60,668 bases of DNA from Acidimicrobiia bacterium (GCA_041619515.1 JBFKDW010000008.1:1-60668); one strand, 5' to 3'. Shown: positions 3,312-15,551, numbered from the stretch's first letter. Translations and numbers: made by a program. Notes: generated by a model from the sequence alone, not told the origin.

Positions 3312-4562
3312 TCAGTCTGATCCCAGGCCGGCCGGTGCCAGCCGGACTGCCGCCTCGATGGCGTTGTAGACCTGGCGAGTGAGGTTCCTGTCGCCCGGCG
3401 GCATCAGGTTGGACATGACCCGGAATGTCCACTCCATCAGCGGACGAGACCTGAATCCGGCGGTCATGAACGCCCGCATGATGGAGGGATTTCCGATGGC
3501 CCGAACGAACACCCTTCCGACCCGGTAGTAGTCGCCGAACTCGGCTTCGAGCTCCTCGGGAAACCTGCGCAGGATCGACAAGTCATCGGCCACCAGCGCC
3601 CGGTGGGCGGTGTCTGCAGCCATTCGCCCCGTCTGGTACCCGTAGGCGATGCCTTCCCCGGTGAACGGGTTGGTCGATCCCAGCGCGTCTCCCACCAGCA
3701 CCCAGTTGGGTCCGGCGATCGGCCCGCCCGACATGGCCATCGACAGCTTGCCCCCGACCGGTTCGGTGAGCCGGGACGTCCAGTCCACCTGCCAGTGGCC
3801 GGGAAGGTTGTGCAGGTAGGTATCGAGCAACTGGCCCGTGTTGACCCCCTTCCACCGTTTGCTGGTGGACAACAGCCCCACCCCGATGTTGACGGTCCGG
3901 TCACCGAGAGGGAAGGTCCATCCGTAGCCGGGGACGTTCTTTCCTTCCCTGTCTTTCAAATCGAGCAAGCTCTCCATCATGTCGTCGCCGGCGAATGGGC
4001 TCGAGTAGTACGCCCGCAGCGCCAAACCGTACGGGGCTTTGCGGTCCCGGCCGACACCGAGCGGGCGACCGAAACGCGACACTGCCCCGTCGGCGATCAC
4101 AACCATGCGGGGTGTCATGATCTCGGTGTCACCGTTGCGCGAAACGGCGACACCGGCCAGCCGGCCGTCGTCGATGACCGGGGCAGCCAGTGCTCCGTCG
4201 TGGATGACCACCCCCTGCTTCTCGGCCAGCATCGCCACCTGCTCATCGAGGTCGGCCCGGCGGATGATGGCGCCCCACCGCGGGTAGATCGGATGGTCGG
4301 GCCACCGCATCTCGAGCATCGAGCCGGCCCCGTAGGAGCGGAGCCCGTTGATTCTGTGCAGCTCGGGGACGTCGAAATCGAAACCCATCTGCTGGAGCTC
4401 GTGAATCGCCCGCGGGGTGAGCCCGTCGCCGCAGGTCTTCTCTCGCGGATAGGTCTTCTTCTCGATCAGCGCGACCGAGTGACCGGCCTTGGCCAGCCAG
4501 TGGGCGGCGCTGGCCCCGGAGGGACCACCCCCGACCACGACGACATCGAGAGACTGGGACAT
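3312..4562 (-). CDS. Geranylgeranyl reductase family FAD oxidoreductase (MenJ-like menaquinone side-chain reductase candidate)
   Basis: VVGGGPSG, REKTCGDGLTPRA, GYGWTFP and GD...NPFTGEGI motifs. Confidence 0.85.
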   Translation of the reverse strand: MSQSLDVVVVGGGPSGASAAHWLAKAGHSVALIEKKTYPREKTCGDGLTPRAIHELQQMGFDFDVPELHRINGLRSYGAGSMLEMRWPDHPIYPRWGAIIRRADLDEQVAMLAEKQGVVIHDGALAAPVIDDGRLAGVAVSRNGDTEIMTPRMVVIADGAVSRFGRPLGVGRDRKAPYGLALRAYYSSPFAGDDMMESLLDLKDREGKNVPGYGWTFPLGDRTVNIGVGLLSTSKRWKGVNTGQLLDTYLHNLPGHWQVDWTSRLTEPVGGKLSMAMSGGPIAGPNWVLVGDALGSTNPFTGEGIAYGYQTGRMAADTAHRALVADDLSILRRFPEELEAEFGDYYRVGRVFVRAIGNPSIMRAFMTAGFRSRPLMEWTFRVMSNLMPPGDRNLTRQVYNAIEAAVRLAPAGLGSD

Positions 4563-5588: not shown

Positions 5589-6524
5589 CTAGGGACTGGC
5601 GGTCGTGTCCTCGCCGACGGTGAGGCAGTCTGCCTCTACCTCGGCGGCGTCGAGGCCGCCGTGCGTGACGCGCTCGAAGATGACGACGGCGGCTATCTCC
5701 TCGGGCGTGAGGCCTGCGTCCTCATAGGACTGCATGACCCCGCCGCCTCCCACCGGCTTGTTCTGGGCCCCATAGGTGTCGCCGACTTCGTTGCGCCAAC
5801 GGTTGCTACCGAGCGCTACCCACGCGATGTGATCGGCGCAGGATGGGAACGTCTCCACCACCGCGCCCCCGGCCAGCGCCGGTCCCGTGCCCCCGCCTCC
5901 GTCTGCTCCATGACAGCTCAGGCAGGCAGGGGACGCGTCTACCGAGTAGAGCGCCGCACCCAGCCGGAGCGGGTTGCCGCCGAGAGAGCCGAATTCGGTC
6001 CCGTCACAATTCTCGGCCACGCCCGTCACCGGATCGACCGCCAGCGCACCCCCGCGACCGCAGCTGGGCCCGGTGGCGAAGGTGGCGGCATAGAAGAGGG
6101 CGACGAGCGGTACCACCATGAAGGTGGCGGCCAGCCAGCGCGGCAGTGACTTGCGCCTCAGCTCGCGAATCCCTGCCGAGCCCACGAGTACCTCCTCGGG
6201 CTCTTCCTCCGGCTCCGGCTCGGGCTCGGGCTCGGGCTCGGGCTCCGGCTCCGCCTCTGTGCTCGGCGACACCACTTCGACGTCGAGGGTGGCGGCGGGC
6301 TCAGCGGCAGGCGCCGCCGGCGTCGCCGGTGCCGCCGGGGCCGCCGGGGCATCCGACTGGGGGGCGGAACTCACCGAGCCGGCGTCGACACCCGCCCACC
6401 CGGCGAGGATCTGCTCGGGAGCGACGCCTTCGGCAGTTGCCCGAGCCCGCGCCGAACGCCCGACGAGCTCGGCAGGGGCCGATAGTGCGTCCGAGGCGGC
6501 TGAGAGAAGCTGTTCGAAATCCAT
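5589..6524 (-). CDS. Membrane-anchored monoheme cytochrome c with N-terminal helical module and Ala/Pro/Glu-Pro linker
   Basis: CLSCH heme motif, candidate axial Met (VMQSY), single TM after RRKSLPRW. Confidence 0.88.
   Translation of the reverse strand: MDFEQLLSAASDALSAPAELVGRSARARATAEGVAPEQILAGWAGVDAGSVSSAPQSDAPAAPAAPATPAAPAAEPAATLDVEVVSPSTEAEPEPEPEPEPEPEPEEEPEEVLVGSAGIRELRRKSLPRWLAATFMVVPLVALFYAATFATGPSCGRGGALAVDPVTGVAENCDGTEFGSLGGNPLRLGAALYSVDASPACLSCHGADGGGGTGPALAGGAVVETFPSCADHIAWVALGSNRWRNEVGDTYGAQNKPVGGGGVMQSYEDAGLTPEEIAAVVIFERVTHGGLDAAEVEADCLTVGEDTTASP
6211..6252 (-). repeat. 6-bp coding tandem repeat giving an (EP)n rod-like linker
   Basis: ggctc(c/g) x7 on the plus strand. Confidence 0.85.
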
Positions 6525-8462
6525 TTACTGCAGGCTCACGATGTACTGGGCGAGCGCATCGAGCTCGTCGTCTGTCAGGTAATCGTAGGAGGGCATCGCG
6601 GACCACGCGCGACCAAGGCGGGGGTTCGCCAGATGGCCGGCCACCCAGTCGACGTCGTCGGTGGGCGCCCGCCGACCGGCATGAGCCAGGTCCGGCCCGA
6701 GGCGGATGCGACCGAGCAGAGCAGGAGAGGTAAGGGTGACGTCCTGCCGACTGGTGACGGCCCCGAGACCGACGTCCGTGACGTTGGCGCGGACCTGTTG
6801 GGTGTGGCAGTACACACACCCCTCGGCGATGTAGATGTCCCGACCCTCGGCGACCAGGCGCAGGTCGAGGCCGAGCTCGGCAAGGAGGTCGGCTGCCTGG
6901 GGCGCACCGGTACCGGCGGCGAACGCCTCGTAGTCACGGGAGGAAACGGCCAGCAGGCTCGGCTCCTCATCGGACGCGTCCAGCACCGGCATGAGCACGG
7001 TGGTCAGGAAGGCGGCTCCGATGATGAGCACCGCTGCTGCCGCGACTTTGTTGGGCGGGAGCACTCCGAGCTCATCGGGCTCGGCAGCGTCACCGGAAGG
7101 GGATCCAATCGGAGAGAAGTGCCACCGACCGCCCACGGCCGTCCTCACGGCGAACCAGACCAGCCCGGCGGCCACGAGGACCCAGGCGAGCCAGCGGACC
7201 GTGTCGAAGCCGGCCAGCTGAGCAGTGGTGTTGACGAAACCTTCGCCGTAGTTGACGAAGTCCTGAGAGGCCGGCCCCGCCGACCAGGTGAAGCCGGTGA
7301 GCAGCCCCCCGAGCCAGAGGGTGGCGACCAGGACCGCCACGCCCGGGAACGCCAGCCGCAGCACGGACTCGCCACCCCCCCGCAGATGTGAGAGCAGCGC
7401 CAGCAGCCACATGCTTCCGGCGCCGAGCACTGTGATCACGAAGGTTGCCTCCGTCCAGGTGGTGAACTGGACGATGGTGCTGGAGGACCGGAAGGCCAGC
7501 GCCAGGATCTGCAATCCGAGCAAAGCGAAGAACGAGGTCCCGGCGAGTGCAAGGCGGACGGGTGTCGAACGGCGGGCGGCCGCCCAATCGATCGACAACA
7601 GCAGGTTGGCCACCGCCGCAGTGATGGGAACGAGCACGGCAATGGCAAAGACAACGGTGATGGTCTCGAGCCAATCCGGCCCCGGCCCGAACGTGAATGT
7701 ATGTGCCCCCACCCAGGCGAAGGTCCCCGCCACCGACCAGAAGCTGACAACCGCCAGCCGCATGCTGAACAGGGGCGTATCGGTCAGCTTGGGAATGATG
7801 TAGTAGGCGATGCCGAGACCGGCCGGAACCACCCAGAGGAAAAGCACTCCGGCCTCGGCGAAGCGGTTGACGAGCTCGAGATCCGTGCCGCGAAACCCGG
7901 CCAGGGAGCCAACGAGGTAGGAGACGAGCAGCCACCACACGGATGCCACGAAGAACCACACCGACACGTACACGTGCGGCTCCCGATGGGCGACGGCCGT
8001 CCGGGTCACAACCCGTGTCACCCCGGTGAGGCCGGCGATGATGGCGATATCGGAGTAGAACGGAAACTCGAAGAGCGGGACGCCCTGGTTGCCTCCCAGC
8101 GCTACCGCCACCAGGCCGATGACTGTGCCGGCGGCGATGAGGACCAGCGACAGCAGTGCCAGCGGCTCTTCGTGCAGTGGCGCCCCGGTGAGCCGCGGCA
8201 GCAAGTAGTAGATGGCGCCGATCAGCCCGATCGTGAGCCATCCGAACAGCAGCGCCCCGGTGAACACCGGGTGCAAGCGACCGTAGCTGAGCGGTCCGGA
8301 ATTGAGGAACCCGGGTGCACTCAGCTCGATAGCGAGCAGGAGGCCTGCCGCCGCTCCGATGGCGAGGAATAGTGCGGCGACCCGGAAGTGGATCTTGGCT
8401 AGTGCATCGGCTCGGGCGCCGATGTCGCTCTCTGGCACTGCCGTGTCTGTTGTCAACCTCAC
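6525..8462 (-). CDS. CcoN-like/CcoO-like fusion (cbb3 oxidase subunit I+II homolog); CcoN part lacks most metal ligands
   Basis: CcoN-like segments SYGRL.P, IYYLLPRLTG, VYVSVWFF and YYIIPK; CcoO-like YIAEGCVYCHTQQVR, RLGPDLAH and SAMPSY. Confidence 0.88.
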   Translation of the reverse strand: MRLTTDTAVPESDIGARADALAKIHFRVAALFLAIGAAAGLLLAIELSAPGFLNSGPLSYGRLHPVFTGALLFGWLTIGLIGAIYYLLPRLTGAPLHEEPLALLSLVLIAAGTVIGLVAVALGGNQGVPLFEFPFYSDIAIIAGLTGVTRVVTRTAVAHREPHVYVSVWFFVASVWWLLVSYLVGSLAGFRGTDLELVNRFAEAGVLFLWVVPAGLGIAYYIIPKLTDTPLFSMRLAVVSFWSVAGTFAWVGAHTFTFGPGPDWLETITVVFAIAVLVPITAAVANLLLSIDWAAARRSTPVRLALAGTSFFALLGLQILALAFRSSSTIVQFTTWTEATFVITVLGAGSMWLLALLSHLRGGGESVLRLAFPGVAVLVATLWLGGLLTGFTWSAGPASQDFVNYGEGFVNTTAQLAGFDTVRWLAWVLVAAGLVWFAVRTAVGGRWHFSPIGSPSGDAAEPDELGVLPPNKVAAAAVLIIGAAFLTTVLMPVLDASDEEPSLLAVSSRDYEAFAAGTGAPQAADLLAELGLDLRLVAEGRDIYIAEGCVYCHTQQVRANVTDVGLGAVTSRQDVTLTSPALLGRIRLGPDLAHAGRRAPTDDVDWVAGHLANPRLGRAWSAMPSYDYLTDDELDALAQYIVSLQ

Positions 8463-8585: not shown

Positions 8586-9017
8586 ATGGACGACGCGGAC
8601 GCATTGGCCCGGCTATCCGCGGCTCGGGTTGCGGTTCTGGCGACCGTTCGGCCCGAGGGTGGCCCCCATCTGGTGCCCGTGACATTTGCCTCGCTCGGCA
8701 ATCGGCTCGTCTCGGCCATCGACCACAAGCCGAAGCGGACCGGCCGCCTGCAGCGGCTGGAGAACATCCGGGCCGACCCGCGGGTATCACTGCTGGTGCA
8801 CGGGTACGACGATACGTGGCGCCGGCTCTGGTGGGTGCGAGCCGACGGCTCCGCCGCGATCATCGATCGGGGAGTCGACTTCGAGGCAGCACGAGCGGCC
8901 CTGGTGGAGAAGTATGTTCACTATCGAAGCCGCTCCCCGGCAGGCCCGGTCATCGAGATTGCGGTCGAACGGGTGGTCGGGTGGGAGTCGTCCCCGGGTG
9001 AGGCCATCGGGACGTAG
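8586..9017 (+). CDS. PPOX-class F420-dependent oxidoreductase (Rv0121-like)
   Basis: LATV..PHLVPVTFA, IDHKPK and LWWVRADG motifs. Confidence 0.85.
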   Translation: MDDADALARLSAARVAVLATVRPEGGPHLVPVTFASLGNRLVSAIDHKPKRTGRLQRLENIRADPRVSLLVHGYDDTWRRLWWVRADGSAAIIDRGVDFEAARAALVEKYVHYRSRSPAGPVIEIAVERVVGWESSPGEAIGT

Positions 9018-9107
9018 TCTGCTCATCACGAAGCCGGCGACCACCGGCGCGGTAAAGTGGGCGCCGCATCACCGGGCGTGAAAGACTCGGCAGGATTAGG
9101 ACACGGC

Positions 9108-9695
9108 TTGACTGAGCAACGACGCAAACTCATCGGGATCGGCGGGATCGTCGCCGGGCTCGGCATGGTGGCGGTAGGCCTCGTCGTCGCCCACTTCACG
9201 TTCCTACCCACCGAAGACGCGCTCGGCAACGAGGTGCTCCCGTCGATACCGCGCGGCTGGCAGCTATACACACTCGGCCAGCTCGTCGCCGTCGGGGGCA
9301 GCCAGCTGATCGTGGCGGGGGTCTTTATCGGCTGGCTGTGGGAGAAACCCATCACCTGGGTGCGGGCGGCCGTTGCCTCGCTGCTCGGTTGGTTCCAGCT
9401 CGTCCTGTACTTTGGGATCATCCCCTCCGAGATGCTCAACCTGGCACAGGGGCCGCTCGAGTGGACATCCCGCACGGCCTTCACCATCCCGAGCTGGCTC
9501 GTGCTGAACAACGAGATCTCGATCAGCTGGCTGACCATCAAGGACGCACTGGTCGCCGGCTATTACACCAATGCGTTCATCGTGCTGATCGTCGGCATCT
9601 ACATGGCGCAGGTGTGGATCAAGAAGCGGGCCGAAGCCACCCCGGTCATCGAGATATCCACCTGGGGCAGGCCGATGCGGAAAGGCAGCGCCTGA
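9108..9695 (+). CDS. Uncharacterised multi-pass membrane protein, first gene of the Rieske/cytochrome b operon
   Basis: 3-4 hydrophobic segments; TGATG overlap with the ferredoxin; start uncertain (9057 or TTG 9108). Confidence 0.75.
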   Translation: MTEQRRKLIGIGGIVAGLGMVAVGLVVAHFTFLPTEDALGNEVLPSIPRGWQLYTLGQLVAVGGSQLIVAGVFIGWLWEKPITWVRAAVASLLGWFQLVLYFGIIPSEMLNLAQGPLEWTSRTAFTIPSWLVLNNEISISWLTIKDALVAGYYTNAFIVLIVGIYMAQVWIKKRAEATPVIEISTWGRPMRKGSA

Positions 9696-10138
9696 TGGCC
9701 GGCGAGATCTGGGAGACACCGCCATTCCGGGACGACTATCAGCTGGCAGTGGTCGATCCCACCTACATTCAAGAGGCGGTCCGTCCCAAGCAGTTCCTCC
9801 ACATCAACCAGGCTGAGTGCATCCTGTGCGAGGGCTGCGTGGACATCTGTCCCTGGAAATGCATCCACTACTTGTCGGTCGACGTCATCGAAGAGGCCGT
9901 CAACGTCGCCGACCCGGCCGCCGATGCCGGCAACCTCGGGGTGTTCATCGTCGACGAGGACGAATGTACCCGGTGCGCCCTGTGTATCGATCGATGCCCG
10001 ACGGGTGTGATCACGCTCGGCAAGTTCGCCGGCTCGCTGGCCGACCAGGCCGACCAGCTCGGCCTGCCCGCACCGTGGGAGATCGACACCGGCGATCGGG
10101 ATTTCAAGAACGGCTACGCGTACGGGGTGCGATGGTGA
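9695..10138 (+). CDS. 2x[4Fe-4S] ferredoxin
   Basis: CILCEGCVDICP and CTRCALCIDRCP; ATG at 9695 overlaps the upstream stop; no signal peptide. Confidence 0.92.
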   Translation: MAGEIWETPPFRDDYQLAVVDPTYIQEAVRPKQFLHINQAECILCEGCVDICPWKCIHYLSVDVIEEAVNVADPAADAGNLGVFIVDEDECTRCALCIDRCPTGVITLGKFAGSLADQADQLGLPAPWEIDTGDRDFKNGYAYGVRW

Positions 10139-10150
10139 GAAAGGGCGATC

Positions 10151-10939
10151 TTGGCTAACGGCAATGGGAACGGCAACGGCGGGCTCAGGCTGAAAGAGCG
10201 ACTGTCCGGCGTGGGAACCAAGCTGCGCGACAGTGAGGCATGGGCGAGTATCTTCAGGCCCGGGTCGCCGTTCCGAGCGGGATACTCGGACTCACCGCGC
10301 AACCGGTCGTACGTCATCATGAACAACGTTCTCTATCACCTCCACCCGGTGAAAGTGAAACGCCACGGCGTGCGACTGTCCTACACGCTGTGTCTCGGCG
10401 GCCTGTCGTTCTTCTTGTTCATCCTGCTGACCGTGACGGGCATCTTCCTGATGTTCTATTACACCCCGTCGGCCGAGGCGGCCTACGCCGACGTCCAGGC
10501 GTTGTCGACCAGCGTGACGTTTGGCGGCCTGGTTCGAAACCTCCACCGCTGGGGCGCCCACTTCATGGTCATCACGGTGTTTCTCCACATGAGCAGGGTC
10601 TTCTACCACGGCGCCTACAAGCCACCCAGGGAGTTCAACTGGGTCATCGGCGTGATCCTCCTGCTGCTCACGCTGTTGCTCTCGTTCACCGGATACTTGC
10701 TGCCCTGGGATCAGCTGGCGCTGTGGGCCGTGACCGTCGGTGGCTCGATGGCCGGCTTCACCCCGGTGTTCGGTGACCAGGTGACCTTCGCCCTACTGGG
10801 TGGCGTCGAGATCTCGGGAGCGACGTTGCTCAGGTTCTACGTGCTCCACGTCTTGTTCCTGCCGTTCATCATCGTCATCTTCATGGCCGTGCATTTCTGG
10901 CGGGTTCGCAAGGATGGCGGCATCTCCGGTCCCCTTTAG
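10151..10939 (+). CDS. Cytochrome b6-type (short, 4-helix) cytochrome b of a Rieske/cyt b complex
   Basis: YTLCLGG (heme-ci Cys position), LHRWGAH...[13 protein letters not shown], helix-D H-x14-H and C-terminal GISGPL. Confidence 0.93.
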
Positions 10940-10954
10940 GCTCGAGGAATCCAT

Positions 10955-12133
10955 ATGGCTGACATCCCAGATCCACTGCTCCGCAGATCGGCCGAGGCGA
11001 GGGCGAGCGCCGAGGGCGTGACCGTCGAGGAGATCCTCGCTCGCTGGCGTGGTGAGGCTCCGGCGGAGGCATCGCCGCCTCCGGCGACGCCCGCCGAGGA
11101 TGCTCCGGCCCCCGCCGCCGCACCTGCGGCTGCTGCCATGTCGACCGAGGAGTACGCCAAGGCGGCCGCCGCAGCCTCCGGCATGCCCGAAAAGCTCATC
11201 ATGCGCTCCGCCCAGGCCAAAGCCAAGGCACAGGGAGTCCCCGTCGAAAGCGTCCTCGCCGAGATGGCCGGCCTCCCCGACCCGGGAGCCGCCCCCGCCC
11301 CGGCCGCAGCAGGCGCCGCCCCCACCGCAGGCGCCGCACCGGTGGCTGCTGCCATGTCGACCGAGGAGTACGCCAAGGCGGCCGCCGCAGCCTCCGGCAT
11401 GCCCGAAAAGCTCCTCATGCGCTCCGCCCAGGCCAAGGCCAAGGCACAGGGAGTCCCCGTCGAAAGCGTCCTCGCCGAGATGGCCGGCCTCCCCGACCCC
11501 GGAGCCGGCCCCCCTCCCCCGGCGCTCGCCCCGACGGGCACCAACGGGACTGCCGCGGCCCCCGCCCCGGCGCCGGCTGCCGTTCCTGCCCCGGCCCCGA
11601 GCGGGCCGCCCGAGGGGGTTCGCACCCAACGTCTCCTCACCGTCGTCCAGGCGAAGGCCATCCAGCAGGTCAAGGCAGAGCCGACCGACAAAGTGAACGT
11701 GTGGCCGCACCTGCTTGCCATCGAGTTCGTCGCCCTGCTGGCGGTGACGGCCGTACTCATCGTGATCTCGGTCATCATCAACGCGCCGCTGCTGGAGGCT
11801 GCCAACTTCAACCTCACCCCGAATCCCTCTAAGGCCCCGTGGTATTTCCTCGGGCTCCAGGAGTTGCTCTCCTACTTCGATCCGATGATCGCCGGGGTGC
11901 TCATTCCCGGGCTCATCGGCCTCGTCGGCCTGATGGCGATCCCCTACATCGATCGGAATCCGTCGGTGCGACCCGCCGACCGCAAGCTGGCCATCATGAT
12001 GTTCACGTTCTTCCTGATGGGTGCCGCCACGCTCGTGATCCTCGGATCGTTCTTCCGGGGGCCGGGTTTCAACTTCACCTACCCCTGGAGCGACGGCGTG
12101 TTCTTCGACGACCTCAAGGACTGGCTGGAATGA
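10955..12133 (+). CDS. Cytochrome b6f subunit IV (PetD-like) with long repeated N-terminal extension
   Basis: [24 protein letters not shown] (PEWY-like) and PYIDRNP; 3 TM segments. Confidence 0.9.
11116..11507 (+). repeat. In-frame near-identical duplication (~175 bp units, period 216 bp) within subunit IV
   Basis: [20 protein letters not shown](I/L)[30 protein letters not shown] begins at 11138 and again at 11354. Confidence 0.95.
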
Positions 12134-12960
12134 GCGCAGGACAAGCAGCCGCCTTGGGAATTGCCATCGTCGCCGTCCTCTCCTCGGTGGCCATACTCGC
12201 CCTCGCCTGGCGAAGAGAAAGCGAATCTTCATCGATCGGCACGCTCGATCGCGAGGCGAGACGCGCCCGCGTCCGGCGGCCCGTGCTCGGCGCTTCGGGC
12301 GCGGCCGTGCCGGGGGAAGCAGACCGCCCGGTGGAGGCCGCCGCCGTAGCCGTCGGCGAGCCGGCCGAGGCTTCCTCCCGCGTCGTCGAGCTGACCCCCG
12401 CCCAATTCGGCGAAACTCGCCGCCAATTCCTCAACCGCGCCATAGGGGTCTCCTTCGGAGCCTTCCTGGCATTCTTCGGGATCACCTCGCTTGCGTTCCT
12501 GTGGCCGCGGCTCAGAGGCGGCTTCGGCGGCAAGATCGATGCCGGAGCCATCTCCGACATCAAGGAGGCGATCTTCCAGCCCGACGGCTCCATCGAGCCC
12601 TTCTACGTCGCCGAGGCCAAGACCTACGTTGTTCCCTTCAACCAGGGGTTGATCGACGAAACGGACTTCGCAGGTATCGATGTGGTCGTCGAAGGGCTGA
12701 CCGGGCTGTGGCAAAAGTGCGTGCACCTGGGTTGCCGGGTGCCGTGGTGCAATTCCTCGCAGGGCTTCGAGTGCCCCTGTCACGGATCCAAGTACAACGC
12801 GGCGGGTGAATACGAGGCCGGCCCGGCTCCGCGCAATCTCGACCGGTTCACGCTCGAAGCAGTCGAGGGACGGTTGATCATCAACACCGGGGCCGTGCGC
12901 GATACCCCCCGGGCCAAGGTCAAGACCGTGCCGTACCCACAGGGGCCGAACTGCCTGTGA
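12130..12960 (+). CDS. Rieske [2Fe-2S] subunit
   Basis: CVHLGC and CPCHGSKY; internal Tat motif TRRQFL; ATGA overlap with the subunit IV stop. Confidence 0.93.
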
Positions 12961-12967
12961 GCGCTCC

Positions 12968-14461
12968 GTGAGCCTCGGACCTTTCGCCGTCATCATTGCG
13001 GTCGTGTTCCTGCTGGGCGGCTTGGCCTACCTCGTGAACAGCGGACGCGGCCCCCGGCCCGGCCGCGAGGTGCCGCCCAACCTGGCCCCCTACCTGACCG
13101 ACGAGGAACTGGAGACCTCCCGGCTCAATCGTACGCTGGTCACCGCCCTGTTCTCCTCGGCGTTCCTTGCCATCGCACTGCCGGTGTACTTCCTCACCGA
13201 GTCGGGCCGCCAGGATGATTTCGTGCACATGTTCGAGGAAGAAGCCATCCACATCGGCGAGGCGATCTACCTCAGGCAGACTCCGGACAACCCAGAGGGT
13301 TTTGGCTGCATCGCCTGTCACGGTGCCGAAGGAGTTGGCGGGGGCGCAACCTATGTCGATCCCCGTACCGGCGCCAGTGTCACCTGGCCGGCCCCGGCCC
13401 TCAACGACGTGCTGTATCGATACGACGAGGAGGAGGTGCGCTACTGGCTCATCTGGGGCCGCCCCGGCAGCCCGATGCCGGCCTGGGGCGTCGAGGCAGG
13501 CGGCCCGCTCAACGATCAGCAACTCGATTTCGTCATCGAGTATCTCCGGTCCATCCAGATTTCCCAGGACGAGGCAATCGGAGAGGTCGACAACCGCGTC
13601 GCCGCGGAACTCGCCAAGCTCGAGGCCGCCCCGGCCACGATCGACACGGCCATTGCCGGCCAGCGGGGTCGCCTGGCCGCCATCGTCAGTGCCCCTGATC
13701 GGCTGGAATGGGCCGAGCGCCTGTTTAGCGATCTGGAGCAAGTGCTCGACGCCGCACCCTCAGGGCTCGATACGGACCTCGACGGTCTGTCGGACGACGA
13801 CGAGATCCAGGTCAACCGCATTTCCGAGCTGGCGTTTGCCAACGTCGGCACCGACGCCACCCCGGCGACGGCCTCCGCCGCAGATTTGCTGGTTCTGCTG
13901 CTCGACCCCGCCAACCCCTTCTCGACCAACGACGACGTGGGAGAACCGATACCAGACGCGATCGCGGCCACCCAATTGCTCGCCGAGCTCGAGAGCCAGG
14001 TCGCCACCTTGTCGCCGATCGCTCTGAATGTCGACACGCTTCGATCCGCCGCCGAAGCGGCCCTTTCCAATCTGGAGGCTGCGCGCGCGGCCGAGCGGTA
14101 CACCGTCGACTTCGAGGCCCTCGCCGAGAGCACGTTCGGGGGCGACATCGAGACGGCGCAACGGGCGTACGGCCTGTACTCGGCCTACTGCGCCCGCTGC
14201 CACACCGCCGGGTATTCCGCAGGACCCGCTGCCACCCTCGCTCCCGGCTCCGGGGCGCTCGGCCCTTCCCTGCGAGAGGGCCGCTCCATCGTTCAGTTCC
14301 CGGACTTCGAAGATCACTACGAGTTCATCGTCGACGGATCCGAGAACGGTCAACCGTATGGTGTGAATGGCATCGGCCGCGGCTGGATGCCGGGGTTCGG
14401 CGCTGTTCTCTCGGAGGCCGACATCCGCCTCATCGTCGAGTTCGAAAGGAGCCTCGATTGA
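12968..14461 (+). CDS. Membrane-anchored di-heme cytochrome c
   Basis: CIACH...PMPAW and CARCH...WMPGF; two N-terminal hydrophobic segments. Confidence 0.9.
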   Translation: MSLGPFAVIIAVVFLLGGLAYLVNSGRGPRPGREVPPNLAPYLTDEELETSRLNRTLVTALFSSAFLAIALPVYFLTESGRQDDFVHMFEEEAIHIGEAIYLRQTPDNPEGFGCIACHGAEGVGGGATYVDPRTGASVTWPAPALNDVLYRYDEEEVRYWLIWGRPGSPMPAWGVEAGGPLNDQQLDFVIEYLRSIQISQDEAIGEVDNRVAAELAKLEAAPATIDTAIAGQRGRLAAIVSAPDRLEWAERLFSDLEQVLDAAPSGLDTDLDGLSDDDEIQVNRISELAFANVGTDATPATASAADLLVLLLDPANPFSTNDDVGEPIPDAIAATQLLAELESQVATLSPIALNVDTLRSAAEAALSNLEAARAAERYTVDFEALAESTFGGDIETAQRAYGLYSAYCARCHTAGYSAGPAATLAPGSGALGPSLREGRSIVQFPDFEDHYEFIVDGSENGQPYGVNGIGRGWMPGFGAVLSEADIRLIVEFERSLD

Positions 14462-14805
14462 TCGACATCACTCTGCCCGAGAGCGTCGTCTTCCGCGGAC
14501 TGTTCGTGACGATCGGGTCGATCATCGTGTTCTACGGGAGCGTCTACCTGCTCGTGTACACCAATCTGGGCAAGAAGCTCGCCTTCCTGATTTCGGGCGC
14601 GGCCCTGTTCGGATGGACATTTCTCAACAGCCTCCTGTTCGTCATCTACGCGCCGCGCGGACCGCGCCCCGCCGTTATCGACGGTCTCAACTTCTTCGAG
14701 GTTCGAGTCACGGCACTCAGCTTCATGCTGGGATCGGCCATTCTGTTCATCATGTTCCTGGTGGCACTCAACCGCCTCGAGACCGCGGATTCCGACACGA
14801 CGTGA
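14458..14805 (+). CDS. Small 3-TM membrane protein (possible accessory subunit)
   Basis: Overlaps the cytochrome c stop; three hydrophobic segments. Confidence 0.75.
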   Translation: MIDITLPESVVFRGLFVTIGSIIVFYGSVYLLVYTNLGKKLAFLISGAALFGWTFLNSLLFVIYAPRGPRPAVIDGLNFFEVRVTALSFMLGSAILFIMFLVALNRLETADSDTT

Positions 14806-14921: not shown

Positions 14922-15551
14922 ATGAAGGGCATACCTCCTGCCACAGTGCAACGACTCCCCATCTACCTGCGGTGCCTGGGTGAGTACGGCAAGCAGACGA
15001 TCTCATCCGAGAGCCTGGCCGAGCTGGCGAGAGTCAACTCGGCGAAGGTCCGTAAGGACCTTTCTTTCCTCGGCTCGTACGGAACACGGGGCGTCGGCTA
15101 CGACGTCGACCACCTCGTCTATCAAATCGGCCGCGAGCTGGGATTGACCAAGGACTGGGCGGTGTGCATCGTCGGGATGGGGAACCTCGGCCGGGCACTC
15201 TCCAAGTACCGCGGATTCGGTGAGCGCGGATTCGCCGTGCTCGGCCTGTTCGACATCGATCCCGCCAAGATAGGCAAGAAGGTCGCGGGCAGGGTGATCG
15301 AGCCTCTGAGCGCTCTGAGCGACGCAGTCAGGGACCGCCAGCTCTCGATCGGCGTGATCACAACACCGGCCAATGCCGCCCAGGAGGTAGCCGACATCAT
15401 GGTGCAAGCCGGCATCACCTCGATCCTCAACTTCGCGCCGACCGTCCTGTCGAAACCCGACCACGTCGACGTGCGTCGCGTCGATCTCTCCACCGAGCTT
15501 CAAATCTGCAGCTTCTACCTGGCGAGAGCTTCCGGAAAGCGGGCCAGCTGA
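14922..15551 (+). CDS. rex: Redox-sensing transcriptional repressor Rex
   Basis: IPPATVQRLPIYLR, VRKDLSFLGSYGTRGVGY, GMGNLG and ILNFAP. Confidence 0.97.
   Translation: MKGIPPATVQRLPIYLRCLGEYGKQTISSESLAELARVNSAKVRKDLSFLGSYGTRGVGYDVDHLVYQIGRELGLTKDWAVCIVGMGNLGRALSKYRGFGERGFAVLGLFDIDPAKIGKKVAGRVIEPLSALSDAVRDRQLSIGVITTPANAAQEVADIMVQAGITSILNFAPTVLSKPDHVDVRRVDLSTELQICSFYLARASGKRAS

Follow-up and report, generated by a model that had tools for sequence, protein, structure and literature searches.

The gene examined here, which lies in a window of 60,668 nucleotides (the whole stretch of DNA analysed) from an Acidimicrobiia bacterium (GCA_041619515.1, JBFKDW010000008.1:1-60668), appears to encode a real and conserved pseudo-oxidase of known fold, i.e., a CcoN, subunit I of the cbb3 type, that has lost its heme and copper ligands and is fused to a CcoO heme c domain. 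As the ligands are lost family-wide under purifying selection, we are nearly certain that the fusion protein is not an O2 or NO reductase, and, as the fold is well kept while the heme- and copper-holding residues are lost, it is probably a membrane scaffold. The preliminary description of this gene had also proposed a repurposed protein that reduces neither O2 nor NO, which is borne out by the family-wide absence of ligands and by low dN/dS values. Hereafter, CcoN* denotes ligand-less CcoN, CtaD* denotes ligand-deficient A-family subunit I, and "carrier" denotes the monoheme cytochrome c encoded by the next gene; G000 is the genome of the window itself (95.65% complete), and residue numbers are those of P0001, the 643-aa form of the window protein.

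Fold and ligand sites of the fusion protein

The fusion ORF is intact over 645 open codons (Table 1) and shows Pfam matches to COX1 at residues 22-423 (E 7.8e-37, 127.6 bits) and to FixO at residues 537-636 (E 5e-19). Phmmer searches of the PDB matched the CcoN chains 6xkw_n, 9g6b_A, 9g83_t, 3mk7_A and 8smr_E (E 1e-18 to 1e-22) as well as CcoO chains (E 1e-10 to 3e-14). When the predicted model of the fusion protein (pLDDT 82.5, pTM 0.88) was submitted to Foldseek, ranks 1-7 were all CcoN chains, with TM scores of 0.81-0.84 over the target, and an ESM Atlas search with the CcoN* domain returned COX1 clusters only. These results indicate that the product has the 12-helix COX1 fold and is nearest to CcoN, in agreement with the intact CcoN-CcoO fusion read earlier from the sequence. 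The fusion itself is secondary; many ligand-less relatives have separate ccoN and ccoO genes. CcoNO fusions in which subunits I and II likewise form one chain (Melioribacter roseus, in the accessible part of PMC5492636; P0036-P0048) keep the six His and the Tyr (P0036-P0050), whereas the present fusion belongs to a ligand-less family in which only some members are fused. A promoter/terminator scan gave no signal above shuffled sequence.

The seven diagnostic sites of the window protein are F65, A202, F246 (the Tyr site), H252, T253, T338 and V340. By alignment, the low-spin heme b His pair is replaced by F65 and V340, the high-spin heme b3 His by T338, and the CuB His trio by A202, H252 and T253, which leaves a single His; we take the corresponding residues of P. 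stutzeri CcoN to be H60/H207/Y251/H257/H258/H345/H347. At the cross-link Tyr site in helix VII, Tyr is present in all 25 intact rows, while the window protein has F246 and other members of the clade have Trp, Ala, Gly or Ser. Profile alignment to the intact relative P0121 required no gaps across all four ligand motifs. The loss of five of the six His and of the cross-link Tyr, originally proposed from a manual alignment, was thus reproduced. The surviving H252 is His in 20 of 35 close relatives and is the only ligand site that is ever His among those 35; H62 of "RLHP" occupies a conserved Arg position, with His there in 1 of 32 close relatives. Throughout the clade (128 rows out of a 196-row tree), 118 rows have none of the ligand His and 10 have one, so that retention of the ligands by orthologues, which would have pointed to recent decay, was not found; all 39 aligned genome loci have 0 of the 6 ligand His.

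Alternative His residues at the metal sites, raised earlier as a possible objection, were not found by alignment and helix topology, as no His, Cys or Met column lies near the metal sites among 105 dereplicated members. In the same members, the six ligand positions vary, none of them conserves a His, Met, Cys or acidic side chain, and the first three His sites mostly have small residues (Ala/Ser/Gly). H23, H157 and H357 were considered as alternative ligands and rejected, as topology places them at cytoplasmic helix ends and none is present in more than 55 of the 105 members. Conservation in the CcoN* clade is concentrated in Gly/Pro/Trp packing residues and in the outer-loop residues R60, E130, D136, D261, R323 and T332, whereas the R62, E127, N108, T210 and G317 positions and all ligands are variable in CcoN* yet invariant in the 25 intact rows. 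Channel-type positions are likewise altered as compared to intact relatives (T210, from 0.92 to mixed; S235, from 0.84 to Ala at 0.57; Q316 and Y310, degraded), with Y218 retained in the clade (0.85); we take the Y218, T210 and S235 positions to belong to the K-channel. No conserved intramembrane polar residues were found in CcoN*, and the charged residues of the window protein are located at helix ends.

The heme c side is well preserved, and the retention of the heme-c motif and axial Met noted in the preliminary description was confirmed for CVYCH and for the Met of SAMP (Table 1). Of the 30 close relatives whose sequences span the sites concerned, all have C547, C550 and H551, and 28 have M621. 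Over 73 unique sequences, the distal ligand of the CcoO heme is Met in 48, His at the same position or at most 2 columns away in 19, and another residue in 6; Met-to-His swaps occur in several families. The distal Met of the carrier is present in 49 of 51 sequences.

Compared to cbb3 CcoN/CcoO/CcoP (PDB 3MK7, 8SMR, 6XKW, 9G83), the module has a like fold, the N-O-(P-like) order, the CcoO CxxCH and Met, and the common outer-loop motifs YGRL, ExP and PDW. It differs in that CcoN* has no ligands for heme b, heme b3 or CuB and no Tyr, its channel residues are degraded, a long linker bears the monoheme c (or cupredoxin) of its third subunit, and neither FixG nor FixS was found in G000. Variant heme-copper oxidases (eNOR, sNOR, gNOR, nNOR, NOD) also have a subunit I that is not an O2 reductase and are also easily mis-annotated, but they are still heme enzymes in which the Tyr is lost or a single ligand exchanged, whereas CcoN* has lost every site; the two protein-ligated hemes and the non-heme metal on His/Glu/Asp by which NORs and variant oxidases are recognized are absent from CcoN*. 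According to the accessible text of Murali et al. (10.1101/2021.10.15.464467), gNOR replaces one His and nNOR uses His/Met, and a "degenerate B family" is named in the accessible part of PMC6431628. As far as their accessible parts go, PMC10156729, PMC5492636 and 10.64898/2026.01.22.701106 concern intact enzymes, with PMC10156729 silent on CcoN ligand loss, and PMC12008989 mentions complexes III and IV and never cbb3 or ccoN. Our literature search, which covered main texts and few subscription journals, returned no description of a His-less CcoN or CtaD.

Selection, distribution and gene trees

Among three genomes of about 1 Mb, dN/dS (NG86) of ccoN* was 0.04-0.05, as compared to 0.012-0.036 for four neighbour genes, and the window gene yielded 0.10-0.24 against six orthologues; these values are rough, as dS was near or above 1 (about 1-2). 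The range of 0.04-0.24 is far below 1 and indicates that the shared losses are under purifying selection, a check suggested at the outset. The ligand loss is thus old. While ccoN* evolves faster than its neighbours, as might be expected of a functionless cbb3 gene that decayed recently or is still decaying, the low dN/dS, the frames that are open in nearly all matches listed in the class search, and the presence in 52 of 65 streamlined genomes and in several classes leave this explanation with next to no probability, and recent decay is ruled out by selection and distribution.

CcoN* matches were found in 121 of 301 class genomes by a single-protein search, i.e., in most of the order of the window, in those 52 of 65 genomes of about 1 Mb, and otherwise only in families f13 and f16 among those sampled. 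The relatives are labelled Acidimicrobiia; two close records are titled Gammaproteobacteria and are probably mislabelled. Families f56 (10 of 10), f58 (7 strong matches of 21) and f102 came to light when 401 phylum genomes were searched with a profile; their CcoN* have 0-2 ligand His. The unpublished genomes G412, G345 and G275 were counted only in denominators. Matches in the actinomycetotal families f50, f70 and f72 and in Brocadiales (an anammox lead), Planctomycetota and Elusimicrobia were rejected as members because all ligands are kept, and all of them represent intact relatives. At L087, L088, L096 and L097 (small-genome Actinomycetota families f50 and f72), an intact CcoN lies beside a five-heme CcoO-like protein.

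Trees were built with FastTree only, after 21 near-identical rows were dropped before the first and three quarters of the core clade before the second. No intact sequence was nested within the ligand-less Actinomycetota group; however, basal support was low (0.61 and 0.64) and the position of the lineage with genomes of about 1 Mb shifted with rooting, and one origin of CcoN* is therefore not established. Several further CcoN branches (P0138-P0201; CcoNO fusions of 750-800 aa and forms of about 500 aa) have lost some or all ligands and are nested among intact sequences, which indicates that ligand loss happened more than once. Met occupies the last heme His site in P0111, P0117 and P0191.

Gene neighbourhood and a second ligand-deficient subunit I

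The carrier gene begins at the base right after the stop codon of the fusion gene, and an operon for a Rieske/cytochrome b6 (bc) complex is encoded on the opposite strand (Table 1). Among 20 loci picked for long contigs, ccoN*, ccoO and the monoheme cytochrome c gene are contiguous in 19, and the bc operon is directly divergent from ccoN* in 17 and at most 8 kb away in the other 3; two families outside the class contributed 8 further loci, and in 7 of these it is also near ccoN*. An orthologous cytochrome b6 was found in 58 of 60 genomes carrying ccoN* and an A-family subunit I in 59 of 60, while CcoN*, the carrier and the orthologous b6 are all absent from family f7 (3 of 3). The subunit IV residues A294-P295-W296-Y297 are invariant in 22 rows and the b6 residues C81-L82-G83-G84 in 23 rows, so that the neighbouring complex III is of the APWY-clade split cytochrome b type. 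This clade is defined in the accessible part of PMC4122944 (Kao and Hunte) by the APWY and CxGG motifs, the latter of the heme ci type, and APWY is described there as characteristic of complexes run in reverse, none of which had been characterised. The two small membrane proteins of the bc operon had no Pfam or ESM Atlas match.

Table 1. Features of the window and CtaD* loci of other genomes (motif, shared ~40-residue helical motif)
Feature	Coordinates	Strand	Basis or remark
CcoN*-CcoO fusion gene	6525..8462	-	645 aa from GTG 8462, or 643 aa from TTG 8456
CcoN* domain, 12-helix heme-copper oxidase fold (predicted)	7128..8399	-	5 of 6 His and Tyr replaced; sole kept His 7703..7701
CcoO part, one membrane helix and outer heme c domain	6528..7061	-	CVYCH 6818..6804; axial Met 6596..6594
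Carrier, membrane-anchored monoheme cytochrome c, CcoP-like	5589..6524	-	Weak FixP_N-like helix, E 0.0028, below cut-off
N-terminal motif, carrier copy	6387..6512	-	Motif search
N-terminal motif, three subunit IV copies	10955-11056, 11150-11275, 11366-11491	+	Motif search
Unnamed membrane protein, first bc-operon gene	9057..9695	+	Operon position
2x[4Fe-4S] ferredoxin of bc operon	9695..10138	+	Pfam
Cytochrome b6 (split cytochrome b)	10151..10939	+	Pfam; CLGG heme ci-type motif
Subunit IV, APWY Qo motif and three motif copies	10955..12133	+	Pfam, alignment
Rieske protein	12130..12960	+	Pfam
Diheme cytochrome c of bc complex	12968..14461	+	Domain search, operon position
Small unnamed membrane protein, last bc-operon gene	14458..14805	+	Operon position
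CtaD*, subunit III copy and unnamed membrane protein, upstream of ctaCDE	L124:7954-11057 (G002), L125:6466-9176, L126:7457-9130, L128:13544-15211; L140-L169; L175-L182

Gene order varies around this core. In G012 the order is resA-resB-ccsB-ccoN*(cupredoxin fusion)-ctaC-ctaD-ctaE-ctaG-ccoO-cytochrome c (L037:4183-16939), with ctaC-ctaG on one strand; by length and tree position, P0130 is also a CcoN*-cupredoxin fusion. The third subunit differs as well, with a FixP_N-like helix and a cupredoxin in place of heme c in f56 (L084:16169-16948) and the helix alone at one f58 locus (L098:7871-8092). G303 (L136, L091) has ccoO and the carrier behind ccsB at a bc locus without ccoN*, and a degenerate CcoN with two His on another contig. 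A PPOX-family gene lies between the divergent operons at 8586-9017 in the window and, among the 20 loci, occurs only here and in G234 of the same genus. In most relatives the cluster is flanked by a geranylgeranyl reductase-family gene (window 3312-4562), which we take to be MenJ-like, and by Rex (14922-15551); a scan of the window with what we assume to be the Rex box consensus gave 0 matches, with 0.49 expected.

A motif of about 40 residues was found in 63 ORFs of 54 loci, exclusively in subunit IV, unfused CcoO and the carrier. Subunit IV of G000 has three copies and the carrier one, and the motif occurs nowhere else in that genome. Searches of Pfam and the ESM Atlas gave no match to it and, as it precedes the first membrane helix, it is expected to be cytoplasmic. 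In some genomes of about 1 Mb, the CcoO and carrier copies are identical. The motif is the only sequence-level tie between the products of the two operons and may serve as a clasp or docking tag.

The working oxidase of G000 appears to be its intact caa3, encoded on contig C51 away from the window. No bd oxidase, FixS or FixG was found in G000, and a search of its contigs for a second CcoN, proposed earlier, found none. Contigs C10, C44 and C3 of G000 encode further heme proteins; another Rieske/cytochrome b region, which includes 6- and 7-heme proteins, lies on C10, and there are additional ORFs with 4, 6 and 9 CxxCH. In G138 (95% complete), CcoN*O and the bc operon are kept and no A-family or bd oxidase was found.

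Class genomes without CcoN* were also read; in 4 of 6, the bc operon and the adjacent carrier are kept and ccoN*O is missing, and immediately upstream of ctaCDE the same four genomes carry a copy of CtaE and a divergent copy of CtaD. The profile built from these four CtaD* sequences matched 48 of 301 genomes at <1e-100, none of them among the 121 CcoN* genomes, and all 30 of the 30 CtaD* loci read have 0 or 1 of the six His. Reading of 20 further loci revealed 8 more CtaD*, including three half-stripped copies, of which those of G295 and G171 keep the heme His and have lost the CuB ligands and that of G203 keeps the low-spin pair only. Overall, CtaD* is present in at least 56 of 301 class genomes (including G002, G008, G014 and G024), without overlap with CcoN* genomes, and lies between heme A/O synthesis genes and ctaC. 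Like CcoN*, CtaD*/CtaE* includes an intact, ligand-deficient subunit I with the same bc operon and the same carrier; unlike CcoN*, it is A-family derived, is accompanied by a subunit III copy at its place upstream of ctaCDE, and has no heme c domain.

The carrier was found in 196 of 301 genomes, i.e., in 119 of 121 with CcoN*/CcoO, in 56 of 56 with CtaD*, in 12 more within CcoN*-bearing families and in 9 others (counted by hand, at a threshold of 1e-20 set after the scores were seen). Seven of these 9 belong to f11, and 5 f11 loci that were read have intact CtaD only. G003 and G009 have the bc operon and caa3, while those of their loci that were read contain no pseudo-subunit and no carrier, which indicates that the pseudo-subunit module is optional. 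As the co-occurrence tracks orders and families, it reflects few independent events. Related bacteria appear to have built a second dead subunit from a different oxidase family.

Possible functions of the ligand-less subunits

We consider it moderately probable that CcoN* is a non-catalytic scaffold that holds c-heme relays on the bc complex. The CcoN fold would then be a cofactor-free 12-helix block, without b hemes in the folded protein, whose kept surfaces for CcoO and for a CcoP-like helix anchor and position two outer c hemes (the CcoO heme and the carrier). The block would also link these hemes to the APWY-type Rieske/cytochrome b6 complex of the opposite strand. Menaquinol would deliver electrons to the bc complex, from whose diheme c they would move along the c-heme relay to an outer acceptor, normally caa3; the relay would be a tethered one in a cell that lacks soluble cytochrome c. 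Association of CcoN* with the bc complex, the direction of electron flow and the acceptor are all presumed here. The general principle of a tethered link where soluble cytochrome c is missing is described in the accessible part of PMC8361435 for the bcc-aa3 supercomplex of Mycobacterium and Corynebacterium, which are also Gram-positive with a diheme c on complex III; the present system differs in its split b6/subunit IV APWY complex III with a ferredoxin, its caa3 complex IV and its added dead subunit. Ligand loss, the kept fold, selection, the heme c motifs, gene linkage and co-occurrence support the scaffold, as do the placement of ctaC-ctaG between ccoN* and ccoO in G012, the shared motif, and the presence of CtaD* where ccoN*O is lost and the bc operon and carrier are kept. 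The module may be a physical member of a supercomplex with complex III and/or IV, a proposal on which genomic linkage, co-occurrence and the shared motif are the observations that bear. On the other hand, the module is optional (G003, G009), a carrier-like match occurs with no pseudo-subunit found in 7 f11 genomes (5 of 7 read, intact CtaD only), no A-family or bd oxidase was found in G138, a cupredoxin (f56) or a bare helix (f58) stands in place of the carrier heme, and a 12-helix block is costly for a one-helix anchoring job. The link of APWY complexes to reverse electron flow made by Kao and Hunte (PMC4122944, accessible part) also counts against this reading.

The same scaffold could instead run in reverse, with the c hemes taking electrons from an outer donor and feeding the APWY bc complex backwards to menaquinone or to an attached ferredoxin. 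Besides the link made by Kao and Hunte, the 2x[4Fe-4S] ferredoxin in the bc operon, the persistence of the module in G138 and the Met-to-His swaps at the CcoO heme, which suggest a potential that is not pinned to the needs of an oxidase, are consistent with this direction. Reverse flow is nevertheless unlikely, as the bc complex is the sole ortholog found in most genomes of about 1 Mb, which have caa3 and need forward flow (no bd oxidase was found in G057), and as the G012 operon unites the module with ctaCDE. It is also rather unlikely that the subunit is an empty shell that carries heme or copper, or offers a docking site, while c-type cytochromes or caa3 mature. Such an assembly factor or placeholder would fit the position of ccoN* directly after ccsB in G012, G006 and three f58 loci and facing a ccm cluster in f56, as well as the position of CtaD* beside heme A/O synthesis genes and the three copies that keep some heme ligands and lack those of CuB. 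Respiratory and maturation genes cluster generally in Actinomycetota, however; moreover, in the order of the window the gene is not beside maturation genes, no His, Cys or Met column that could bind heme or copper is conserved in CcoN*, and a permanently attached, conserved heme c suits a redox relay better. A conduit for an ion, gas, lipid or quinone through the vacated heme cavities or the old proton channel, gated by heme c, seems quite unlikely; although the fold has cavities, lined mostly by small side chains, where two hemes and CuB sat, the channel-type residues are degraded, charges lie at helix ends and ligand positions vary freely among orthologues. Very little probability attaches to the idea that CcoN* is still an enzyme, with new chemistry at a rebuilt metal site, as in variant NOR families. 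Ligand-swapped oxidase families do exist (accessible part of 10.1101/2021.10.15.464467) and H252 is kept in some relatives, but the six positions are non-ligating and variable in 105 members, variant families keep most ligands, and neither FixS nor FixG was found in G000. Of the roles suggested in the preliminary description, the scaffold is thus favoured, whereas the channel and the quinone site gained no positive support.

Six invariant histidines are taken to define subunit I of heme-copper oxidases, and a widespread, selected family without them points to a non-catalytic life of the fold. As anticipated, automated annotation miscalls the protein: source records and databases name CcoN* cbb3 oxidase subunit I, so that a high-affinity oxidase and microaerobic respiration would wrongly be attributed to abundant uncultured actinobacteria, including those with streamlined genomes of about 1 Mb; CtaD* copies would likewise count as second aa3 oxidases. 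New here are the CtaD* copies, the sharing of one carrier by CtaD* and CcoN* genomes, and the motif of about 40 residues. For the APWY bc complexes, left uncharacterised in the accessible part of the paper that defined them (PMC4122944), CcoN* or CtaD* and the carrier are likely extra subunits. More tentatively, and with considerable doubt, we propose that Acidimicrobiia with an APWY bc complex possess a supercomplex that needs a cofactor-free subunit I as a structural module, that this slot was filled twice (from CcoN and, in other families, from a duplicated CtaD/CtaE, with half-stripped intermediates that lost CuB first and hemes later), and that subunit IV and the tethered c cytochromes are held together by the 40-residue motif. 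If this is true, then, together with the other ligand-poor CcoN branches, dead subunit I would represent a recurring pseudoenzyme class in bacterial respiratory chains.
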